In this document: in pieces, positions 37,475-40,091 of the stretch | How positions within the stretch are numbered: the first letter of the stretch is position 1 | How the letters are laid out: every line of letters starts with the position of its first letter | NCBI RefSeq assembly: GCF_009931435.1 | Contig: NZ_CP043414.1 | Strand: one strand, 5' to 3' | Length of the DNA stretch: 64,000 nucleotides | Origin: Escherichia coli | Lineage (GTDB): Bacteria; Pseudomonadota; Gammaproteobacteria; Enterobacterales; Enterobacteriaceae | Program-made: the position numbers and the translations under genes | The notes under the pieces: model-generated | The model's database searches: none | Seen by the model: the letters and a program-made list of their open reading frames with translations, nothing else | What the model was told of the DNA's origin: nothing

Positions 37475-39402
37475 TCATCCTCTCCGGATAAGGCACGGGC
37501 GTAATCTGCCAGTGTTTTCTTGTTGGTTGCTGCACCATCCTCTTCCTGCAGGCTCGCCAGCAGCGCACTGAGATCCAGCTGCCAGCGGGAAATACTGATG
37601 CGCAGCGCCGCCAGCGCATAAACGAAGCAGTCGAGCGCCTCATTGCGTCGCTTTTTGCTGTCCCACAGTATTTTTTTCCTGCCATCCCCCCATTTTTCGA
37701 CCTGCTCTTCAGCAGTCAGTTGCTGCGCTTCGGTCAGATCAAAAATATCCGGGTTATTCGGGAAGTGAACGGCACCGGGAAGCGGTTCATCCCCTCCCGG
37801 CGTCAGTGTGAAGCGGTTATAAATCTGCTCTTTCGCGGTATCCGTACCGATTTCGGTAAGGTAAACCCCGTTTTTGTTTCGCTTACGTGGCATGCTGGCC
37901 ACCGGCTTTCCGTAGACGGATGCCCCTTTAATGGGGATCACCCGGAACAGCCCATGTTTTTTCGAGCGTTCATACACAATGGTCGGGTCAATCCCGCCAG
38001 TATCCCAGCAGATACGGGATATCGACATTTCTGCACCATTCCGGCGGGTATAGGTTTTATTGATGGCCTCATCCACACGCAGCAGCGTCTGTTCATCGTC
38101 GTGGCGGCCCATAATAATCTGCCGGTCAATCAGCCAGCTTTCCTCACCCGGCCCCCATCCCCATACGCGCATTTCGTAGCGGTCCAGCTGGGAGTCGATA
38201 CCGGCGGTCAGGTAAGCCACACGGTCAGGAACGGGCGCTGAATAATGCTCTTTCCGCTCTGCCATCACTTCAGCATCCGGACGTTCGCCGATTTTCGCTT
38301 CCCACGTCTCACCGAGCGTGGTGTTCACGAAGGTTTTACGTTTTCCCGTATCCCCTTTCGTTTTCATCCAGTCTTTGACAATCTGCACCCAGGTGGAGAA
38401 CGGGCTGTACGCTGTCCAGATGTGAAAGGTCACACTGTCAGGCGGCTCAATCTCTTCACCGGATGACGAAAACCAGAGAATGCCATCACGGGTCCAGATC
38501 CCGGTCTTTTCGCAGATATAACGGGCATCAGTAAAGTCCAGCTCCTGCTGGCGGATGACGCAGGCATTATGCTCGCAGAGATAAAACACGCTGGAGGGAT
38601 CATCCGGCGTCCATTTGAGGCCAAACGGCGTCTCTTTGTCGCCAAATTTAAGGTACTGTTCCTCCCCGCAGTGCGGGCAGGCAACATGAAAACGCATAAA
38701 ATGCGGGGATTCACTGGCTGCACGCTCAATCTGACAGGTGCCTCTCACTTTGGGCGTGGAGCCACGGATGGACTTTGGCCAGACCGAGCCTTCAATACGC
38801 TTGTCACCCAGGAACGTCGGAGAGCCTTCCTGTTCAATATCATCATCAAAGGCAGCAAGTTCATCATAACCCGCCACATCCACCGACTTTTCACGGTAGT
38901 TTTTTGCCGCTTTACCGCCCAGGCACCAGAAGCCACGCCCATTAGTGAAACGCTTCATGGTGAGCGTGTTATCCCGGTGCTTTTTGCCATACCACGGGGC
39001 CAGCGCCAGCAGCGACGGAATATCACGAATAGTCGGCTCAACGTGGGTTTTCATAAAGTTCTCGGCATCACCATCCGTCGGCAACCAGATAAGGGTGTTG
39101 CGCTGCTTATGCTCTATGAAGTAGGCATAAACACCCAGCAGCATTTTGGAATAACCAACACGGGCAGACTTCACCACATTCACCTCACGGATGTAGTCGC
39201 TGCCCATCGCATTCATGATGGCCCGCTGAAAGGGCAGTGTTTCCCAGCGCCCTTCCTGATATGCGGATTCTTTCGGGAGATAGTAATTGGCATCCGCCCA
39301 TTCAACGGGGGTCATTGGCAATGGTCTTTTCAGGACTGAGAGACCCGCCTTCACTGCCAATACGAAATTATTCATCTGTATTTCTGTAATACTCATCCGC
39401 AA
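37471..39402 (-). CDS. A: Terminase large subunit A
   Basis: 643 aa; from about residue 30 ([42 protein letters not shown]) matches lambda gpA as recalled; N-terminal ~30 aa differ. Confidence 0.9.
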
Positions 39403-39898
39403 ATTCCTTCATTTTTTCAGCAGACTCAACGCATTTATTAGCCCCCTTCGCAACCAGCTCTTTTAGATAAGCCAATTGTCTGCCTGTCAATTCAGGGAAT
39501 TTTCTTTGCATCGAAAGCGGAATACTGTCCAAAACAGATGCCAGTTCTCCGGATAACCGGGACAGGGCAAAAATAGAGAAAGCTGTATCAATCACCTTAT
39601 GCTCTGCAACCTGGTTTTTTAACCGCTGAGCAATAGCCTGTTCTTCCGTCAGGTTAACCCTGGCCTGAAGTAGCCTTTCCTCAAGATCATTTTCACCACC
39701 TGAAGATTTCTGGTTTTGTTGACGTCGCTCGCGATCTATCTCCAGTACAGTTTTAACGTCATAGAAAACCTCTCTCCCCCGGCGCTCAACAGGAGGAACA
39801 CCCCATTTATCAAATGCCTGTACAGAGATACCGATGGAGGAGGCCATGTCGCTTTTATTCAATAAAAAGGCCACAGCCCCTCCATAAACCACCGGCAA
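39368..39898 (-). CDS. nu1: Terminase small subunit Nu1
   Basis: 176 aa ORF-track ORF begins with TTG; a more likely start is the in-frame GTG at 39874 preceded by GGAGG. wHTH N-terminus diverged from lambda Nu1; C-terminal part lambda-like. Confidence 0.75.
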   Translation of the reverse strand: MPVVYGGAVAFLLNKSDMASSIGISVQAFDKWGVPPVERRGREVFYDVKTVLEIDRERRQQNQKSSGGENDLEERLLQARVNLTEEQAIAQRLKNQVAEHKVIDTAFSIFALSRLSGELASVLDSIPLSMQRKFPELTGRQLAYLKELVAKGANKCVESAEKMKEFADEYYRNTDE

Positions 39899-40079
39899 AA
39901 AAGCAATACAACAACCACGTTTTTTGTAAAACCCTCTGATTTTACATGCTTTTTCGTATAAGAAAGATCATCAGGTTGTTGTGTTTATTTTTCTTTCTTA
40001 TTACTTATCAAGTAGATATATCAAACGATAAAACAACAACCATCACCTCAAAAAAACTCGTAAATAGCGAAAACCCGCG

Positions 40080-40091
40080 AGGTCGCCGCCC
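40080..40091 (-). other. cosN cohesive-end site (lambda-type 12-nt overhang)
   Basis: Reverse complement of 40060-40097 reads ACGGGGCGGCGACCTCGCGGGTTTTCGCTATTTA, matching the lambda right-end/left-end junction (GGGCGGCGACCT) as recalled; lies ~180 bp upstream of Nu1. Confidence 0.8.

Follow-up and report, generated by a model that had tools for sequence, protein, structure and literature searches.

The cos sites and small terminase genes of phage N15 and of the Monarch group are the closest described counterparts of the locus considered here. In N15, the R3 element of cosB was mapped by mutagenesis to bp 48–59/60 (PMC4669245, PMC9026076), and block mutations of bp 48–59 lower phage yield 7- to 100-fold (PMC4669245). 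The Monarch group (Feiss et al. 2015; described in PMC4669245) combines the N15 recognition helix and R sequence with a tripartite cosB that has a site for integration host factor (IHF) and no rR2. Engineered lambda–N15 hybrids with the lambda large terminase subunit (TerL) are viable (PMC4669245). The present analysis concerns a cos site and the terminase genes beside it in a 64,000-nt stretch (the window) of the Escherichia coli contig NZ_CP043414.1. They very probably belong to a lambdoid prophage whose packaging recognition, judged from sequence, is of the N15/Monarch class and makes use of a complex, lambda-style cosB. Coordinates are positions in the window, and cos positions are numbered starting with the cohesive end's first base. 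The prophage reads on the minus strand, and the order along the phage strand is cosQ, cosN, a 205-bp interval, the gene of the small terminase subunit (TerS, also Nu1) and the gene of the large terminase subunit (gpA).

Repeats of the cosB interval and the small terminase subunit

The motif GGTTGTTGT occurs exactly three times in the window, with all copies confined to the 205-bp interval between cosN and Nu1 (40041–40033 and 39916–39908 on the phage strand, 39974–39982 on the opposite strand). The expectation over both strands was 0.68 per 64 kb, or ~0.002 in 205 bp when calculated from the same rate. These copies form the cores of three elements in the order R3, R2 and R1, arranged direct/inverted/direct: R3 (GGTTGTTGTTTTATCGTTT, 40023–40041, minus strand) has its core at cos positions 51–59, R2 (GGTTGTTGTGTTTATTTTT, 39974–39992, plus strand, inverted relative to the other two) at 110–118, and R1 (GGTTGTTGTATTGCTTTTT, 39898–39916, minus strand) at 176–184. 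Between R3 and R2 lies I1, a candidate IHF site (40006–40018; TATCAAGTAGATA on the plus strand) with one mismatch to the consensus WATCAANNNNTTR. Its phage-strand TTGATA core occupies cos positions 81–86, and the TTGAT at 81–85 falls in the IHF sequence annotated at bp 75–85 of the phage 21 record. A complex cosB, in which R2 is the inverted one of three R repeats and an IHF site separates it from R3, characterises lambda, phage 21, phi80, Gifsy-1 and the Monarch group.

Nine cosB sequences were aligned, namely those of the window, IMG/VR contigs, E. coli O55:H7, O111, SE11-like and GB089. The R3, I1, R2 and R1 blocks were invariant, including TTGATAA.TAA in I1, and the spacers were variable. 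The R2–R1 spacer of the window (39917–39973; columns ~135–145 of alignment A4) is 11 bp shorter than that of the O111/O55:H7 type; since 11 bp is approximately one helical turn, R1 would stay in the same rotational phase with respect to R2.

The R3 and R2 positions and the direct/inverted/direct order agree with those of lambda (CGTTTCC cores read by hand from the lambda left end, with R3 from bp 53, R2 inverted at ~108–124 and R1 at ~151) and of phage 21 (TGTCGG cores at 55+, 112− and 155+). The sequence of the repeats does not: within the cosN–Nu1 interval no copy of the lambda core CGTTTCC was found within one mismatch, and the phage 21 core TGTCGG was not found either. The repeats are instead shared with N15 (NC_001901), where the R3 sequence GGTTGTTGTT lies at the same distance from cosN (bp 51–60 here, bp 50–59 in N15), and R3 of the window agrees with the N15/Monarch pattern GAGGTTGTTGTT at ~bp 48–60. 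N15 differs: its cosB is simple, with R3 only, its TerS begins at bp 89, and the gene contains an inverted rR2 at ~bp 250, whereas no inverted rR2 copy was found inside the TerS gene of the window. The Monarch group, as described, has in common with the window the N15-type helix and R sequence, a complex cosB of R3, R2 and R1 with R2 inverted (the IHF site I1 being a candidate in the window), no rR2 in the TerS gene and a lambda-like 12-nt cohesive end.

The small terminase gene (39368–39874, minus strand; stop codon 39368–39370) encodes a protein of 168 aa belonging to Pfam Phage_Nu1 (E = 1.7e-21, full-length coverage including the C-terminal part) and PHROG 57. In alignments its residues 1–48 (39731–39874, minus strand) correspond to an N15-type winged helix-turn-helix (wHTH) DNA-binding domain, being 79% identical to N15 TerS. 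The recognition helix, SVQAFDKWGV, is shared unchanged with N15, while lambda's SIRTIQNWQE and the helix of phage 21 both differ. Identity to lambda Nu1 amounts to 39% overall, 35% in residues 1–48 and 42% in residues 91–168 (the C-terminal 78), and identity to phage 21 gp1 to 27–28% overall and 24% in wHTH residues 1–48. An AlphaFold2 model built on an 18-sequence alignment (mean predicted local distance difference test score (pLDDT) of 77, ~75 in the wHTH part) comprises a strand at residues 4–6, helices at 7–14 and 18–22, a wing of strands 30–32 and 35–39, a helix at 40–55 and then three long helices. The modelled fold is consistent with a putative gpNu1-type wHTH.

The start codon of Nu1 is, from its sequence context, GTG 39874. 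A Shine-Dalgarno sequence GGAGG (39879–39883, minus strand) stands 4 nt 5′ of it, the GGAG of which is kept in all TerS-bearing relatives. In alignments, this GTG coincides with the ATG of relatives and with that of N15 gene 1 at bp 89, which has in-frame stops just 5′. In seven TerS-bearing relatives the homologous start is ATG, followed by the same MAFLLNK N-terminus, and in a closer relative (L018) it is GTG. The Prokaryotic Genome Annotation Pipeline (PGAP) picks the same TerS start in NZ_CP047277, a 99.7%-identical genome. Two other codons were rejected as starts: TTG 39898 falls within R1, lacks a Shine-Dalgarno sequence and is unconserved, and initiation at ATG 39847 would delete helix 1 of the wHTH.

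The original prediction, made from the window sequence, had left the start ambiguous among these three codons, an uncertainty now removed by the GGAGG, the ATG of the relatives and the PGAP call. It had pointed to the interval as a place for repeated Nu1-binding elements, for which the three GGTTGTTGT copies are candidates. Alignment against lambda and phage 21 bore out its view that Nu1 and cosB are not lambda-identical (Nu1 39%, CGTTTCC absent). Its placing of the Nu1 divergence in the N-terminal wHTH was right for residues 1–48 but too narrow, as the difference extends over the whole protein. Its comparison with the divergence between lambda and phage 21 holds in so far as the specificity module differs from that of lambda; the class, with a helix identical to that of N15, is by sequence N15/Monarch and not 21.

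A lambda-identical cosN and a lambda gpA with a different tip

Upstream of the interval, cosN (CG, GGGCGGCGACCT, CG; 40078–40093, minus strand) is identical to lambda in all 16 bp. The 12-nt cohesive end GGGCGGCGACCT (40091–40080, minus strand) matches lambda J02459 exactly, as does the cosN-proximal spacer (40061–40079, minus strand; lambda bp 13–31), which is kept in all lambda-like relatives. In sum, 31 nt from the first cohesive-end base (the 12-nt end and the next 19 nt) and the CG flanks coincide with lambda. On the 5′ side of the nick, ACG alone is common to the two, and an alignment of 86 columns over lambda −50 to +34, of which 34 bp lie at or after cosN, gave 81% identity. Farther upstream, the packaging-termination subsite cosQ (GGGTCCT, 40114–40120, minus strand; role from PMC4669245) starts 29 bp before the first cohesive-end base, compared with 30 bp in lambda, and this heptamer is common to lambda and all relatives compared. 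Read at the sequence level, the identity of the cosN region reflects conservation among lambda-like phages and not lambda ancestry.

The record of phage cdtI terminates exactly at window position 40092, which fits the position of the nick. On the cosQ side, the flank (40075–40305) has 97% identity to the right ends of two phages, cdtI (L092) and phi458 (L093), and this likeness stops inside cosN, which points to a mosaic joint within cosN itself. Both phages have the cohesive end GGGCGGGAGCGT; the small terminase of cdtI is of the DUF1441 type, and phi458 has another small terminase. E. coli SE11 (L011) and L033 carry the same wHTH and cosB with the cohesive end GGGCGGCAGGCG, and its differences from lambda, at bp 8–12, are in line with the tolerance reported for the right half of cosN.

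The A gene runs from ATG 39396 to a stop at 37471 (37471–39396, minus strand) and overlaps Nu1 by 29 nt. Both open reading frames (ORFs) are intact and fall in the expected Pfam families, GpA_ATPase and GpA_nuclease in the case of gpA. At 641 aa, gpA has the length of its lambda homologue and is identical to it in 608 of 611 residues (99.5%) from residue 31. In residues 1–30, encoded by the first 30 codons (39307–39396, minus strand) and presumed to be a TerS-binding tip, only 13 of 30 are shared. Nucleotide identity to lambda A in successive 30-nt blocks is 53, 30 and 57%, and then 97–100% from nt 90, defining a sharp junction at ~39319–39313 (lambda 788–794). From there, lambda homology extends unbroken from 39319 to 22138 (lambda 788–18002, in gene J) at 97%, while everything upstream of the junction, including the cosQ flank, the lysis genes and the Rac-like early region, is non-lambda.

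A cassette swap with two junctions was rejected, as there is one sharp junction alone, at A codon ~28–30. The junction directly precedes a conserved 14-residue coding stretch, a plausible site of homologous exchange as far as the sequence goes, and a recent recombination there may have brought together a near-lambda head/tail module and a left end of non-lambda type. It also falls just beyond the variable gpA tip, so that each subunit would keep the surface of its cognate partner.

Several parts of the original prediction bear on this side of the locus. A was correctly described as lambda-identical over most of its length and divergent in its first ~30 residues. The match of the cohesive end and its adjacent bases to lambda extends over the 31 nt from the first cohesive-end base, with only ACG kept upstream. 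As to a cosB/Nu1 specificity swap on a lambda head-gene background, a differing module is indeed joined to a lambda-type cosN and head genes, through one junction and not as a two-ended cassette.

The last ~45 residues of TerS (39371–39505, minus strand), assigned by alignment to a variant TerL-binding end, are 41–42% identical to both N15 and lambda and 54–59% identical to the O111/O55/SE11 type, and the gpA tip is 40–53% identical to N15, lambda and the O111/O55/SE11 type alike. In sequence terms, the C-terminal end of TerS and the opening ~28 residues of gpA make up one more variant pair. It is possible, though we hold it only tentatively, that this pair has a TerS–TerL assembly specificity distinct from the lambda/N15, 21 and O111-type pairs, and that gpA discriminates between TerS proteins through its first ~28 residues only. 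If true, the discriminating region would be narrower than the N-terminal TerS-binding domain defined with lambda–21 hybrids. The nearest full-length TerS relatives (L022–L025, 80–82% identical) share the 21-residue TerS ending and a related gpA tip, MNITEAQMSNL….

The same four IMG/VR contigs, together with L062, have the cohesive end GGGCGACGTCCG and possess the R3 and R2 cores without the R1 core or the TTGATAAG motif, which looks like an intermediate cosB layout. TerS of L062 is 65% identical and has a different C-terminus.

Set against known systems, the locus shares with lambda the 16 bp of cosN and 17 further bp, cosQ, the R3–I1–R2–R1 architecture (I1 as a candidate site), in which R3 and R2 hardly differ in position, the body of gpA and head/tail genes of 97% nucleotide identity. 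It differs from lambda in R-site sequence, in the whole of Nu1 and in gpA residues 1–30, and R1 and the Nu1 start lie ~25 bp farther from cosN. N15 differs from the window in its cohesive end at bp 9 and 12 and has a lambda-like TerS C-terminus and gpA tip. Phage 21 (X02501) follows the same modular logic, with an identical cohesive end, its own R sites, an IHF site at bp 75–85, its own TerS and its own TerL tip, but its TerS is only 27% identical, its R sequence is another and its TerL is diverged throughout. Compared with the commoner relatives of the O111/O55:H7 type, the window has a GTG start, the shorter R2–R1 spacer, a TerS C-terminus of only 54–58% identity and the gpA body of lambda, theirs being 72–76% diverged. 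The engineered hybrid lambda N15hy4 (PMC4669245) likewise unites an N15-type cosB and wHTH with lambda TerL and lambda cosN. Its crossover lies inside the TerS gene, leaving it a lambda C-terminus, whereas the natural junction here is at A codon ~28–30 and the TerS C-terminus is of a third type. The viability of such lambda–N15 hybrids makes the combination seen in the window functionally plausible.

Distribution and genomic neighbourhood

The segment consisting of cosB and the wHTH was detected in 298 of 5426 complete E. coli genomes (~5%): 22 at ≥95% identity, ~220 at 80–90% (including O55:H7, O111, O121 and O103 strains) and 56 at 60–80%. The 1.1-kb module in the version present in the window was found nearly full length in fifteen genomes, with near-identical copies (99.7% over 1.1 kb) in other E. 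coli genomes, and eleven IMG/VR contigs carry near-identical copies (98–99% TerS identity). Among sequenced phages, megablast of the region returned none with the same cosB/Nu1, the cosQ–cosN flank alone being matched, and in INPHARED no phage with the same Nu1 was found, the best match having 48–50% protein identity.

A scan of IMG/VR yielded 80 loci with TerS identities from 99% down to 41%. Nearly all of them carry SVQAFDKW or a variant of it differing in one or two residues (ITTQAFDKW, SVQAFSEW), and GGTTGTTGT (≤1 mismatch) is present upstream in all but one, the exception being without upstream sequence. Two layouts were recognised among these loci: a complex one with R3 at ~50, R2 at ~110, R1 at 176–189 and the TerS start at 218–230, and the simple N15 layout, in which R3 lies at 50, the gene itself holds an inverted copy at ~250 and TerS starts at 89.

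In the relative E. coli MFDS1016424 (L009), an IS66-family element cuts the TerS gene after ~31 codons, with cos and cosB intact. Seven matches listed from the 60–80% band cover the cosB half of the query only, with no annotated gene beneath. One of them is E. coli GB089 (NZ_CP013663 2768029–2792203; L010/L094), which has a ~12-kb island at tRNA-Pro between yejM and yejO encoding an integrase, an Icd-like protein, a primase, SSB, a major capsid protein, a decoration protein and a head–tail connector, and no terminase. Its cos (at L010 ~1469) has cosQ and a cohesive end identical to that of lambda, and its cosB is complete and of the N15/Monarch type (R3, TTGATAA, R2, R1), with no TerS gene behind it. 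This island looks like a phage satellite that copies the cosB of its helper instead of redirecting TerS by means of Rpp.

In the window, holins and a GH108 endolysin are encoded upstream of cos, and the near-identical genome NZ_CP047277 has a Rac-like early region (racR, ydaS/T, dicB). A cysteine-rich ORF of 71 aa (40538–40753, minus strand), situated between cos and the lysis genes, matched no Pfam family and is unannotated in NZ_CP047277. Two further genes lie upstream of the lysis cassette: one for a DUF1883 protein (43194–43529, plus strand), on the other strand from the late operon, and one for an N6/N4 DNA methyltransferase (44685–45770, minus strand).

Proposed mode of packaging and rival explanations

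From the anatomy, homology, conservation and distribution of these sequences we infer how binding, bending, cutting and specificity may come about, the individual steps being transferred by analogy from work on lambda and N15. A dimer of the TerS wHTH, with SVQAFDKWGV as its helix, would bind the inverted R3 and R2 cores GGTTGTTGT across an IHF bend at I1, with R1 as an accessory site. The TerS C-terminus would hold gpA by way of the first ~28 gpA residues, and the lambda-type gpA nuclease would be placed on the lambda-identical cosN ~47 bp away, where it would make the 12-nt staggered nicks. Termination would be served by cosQ.

A number of results weigh against this assignment and scheme. 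When the full-length TerS model was compared with the PDB using Foldseek, the top matches were wHTH domains of the MerR family and excisionases, none at E ≤ 0.001, and lambda gpNu1 (1J9I) was not returned; dominance of the long helices is probably the reason for this outcome with the full-length model. A sequence search of the PDB matched gpNu1 (1J9I, 6HN7) weakly, with E values of 0.5–0.9. Matches to the IHF consensus are not enriched across the window (35 against 53 expected) and I1 itself has a mismatch, so its assignment draws on position and conservation. The module of the window is equated with the Monarch group through the description in PMC4669245 and not by sequence. Across 43 distinct loci, the identities of the TerS C-terminus and the gpA N-terminus were strongly correlated (Spearman 0.86 among pairs sharing the wHTH; Mantel r 0.84, 0/2000 permutations), yet this was not taken as evidence of co-evolution, since these are adjacent, overlapping stretches of DNA for which linkage alone suffices. 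Lastly, the prophage could be defective elsewhere.

One rival reading is that the prophage is a decaying remnant whose repeats and ORFs are relics without current function. In the near-identical genome the tail-fibre gene is a pseudogene and the early region is Rac-like, and one relative has an IS66-family element in the TerS gene; we nevertheless consider decay unlikely, as TerS and gpA are intact, as is all of the lambda-like head/tail block (17 kb, 97%), the R and I1 blocks do not vary even among diverged relatives, and viral contigs and several E. coli strains unrelated to one another carry near-identical copies. Very unlikely, in our estimate, is a cos/Nu1 of lambda or phage 21 packaging specificity in which the differences are neutral drift. 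The absence of CGTTTCC and TGTCGG cores from the interval speaks against it, as do recognition-helix residues unlike those of either phage and the finding that N15-specific DNA is not packaged by lambda or 21 (PMC4669245), even though cosN, cosQ and the R3/R2 positions are like those of both phages.

The 168-aa protein might also be taken for a satellite-type, Rpp-like redirecting protein that hijacks a helper terminase, and not for a phage TerS, given that Rpp proteins have a Nu1-like wHTH and adjoin a lambda-like cosN with a different cosB (PMC9026076, PMC6739421). This is scarcely credible: the protein covers Phage_Nu1 over its full length, C-terminal part included, and the gene context contradicts it, the gene overlapping a full gpA gene within a complete head/tail operon; moreover, Rpp proteins are 30–40 residues shorter, and the cosBs of phage-inducible chromosomal islands (PICIs) are without I1, R2 and R1 (PMC9026076).

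A lambdoid prophage with N15/Monarch-type packaging recognition is an ordinary mosaic and not a new system, that class having been described already. For annotation, the TerS start and the cos subsites are fixed, and no new mechanism is revealed. A variant pair of TerS C-terminus and gpA N-terminus joined cleanly to a lambda gpA body is not obviously covered in the literature consulted, and the mosaic joint can be located relative to the protein interaction surfaces. Three lambda-like packaging specificities are documented (lambda, 21 and N15), and the locus supplies a naturally occurring case to add to them. Its combination of N15/Monarch-type recognition with a gpA that is essentially that of lambda and a cosN identical to lambda's would be the natural counterpart of the laboratory-built hybrids. 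With a share of ~5% of complete genomes, the N15/Monarch specificity class appears to be common in E. coli prophages.

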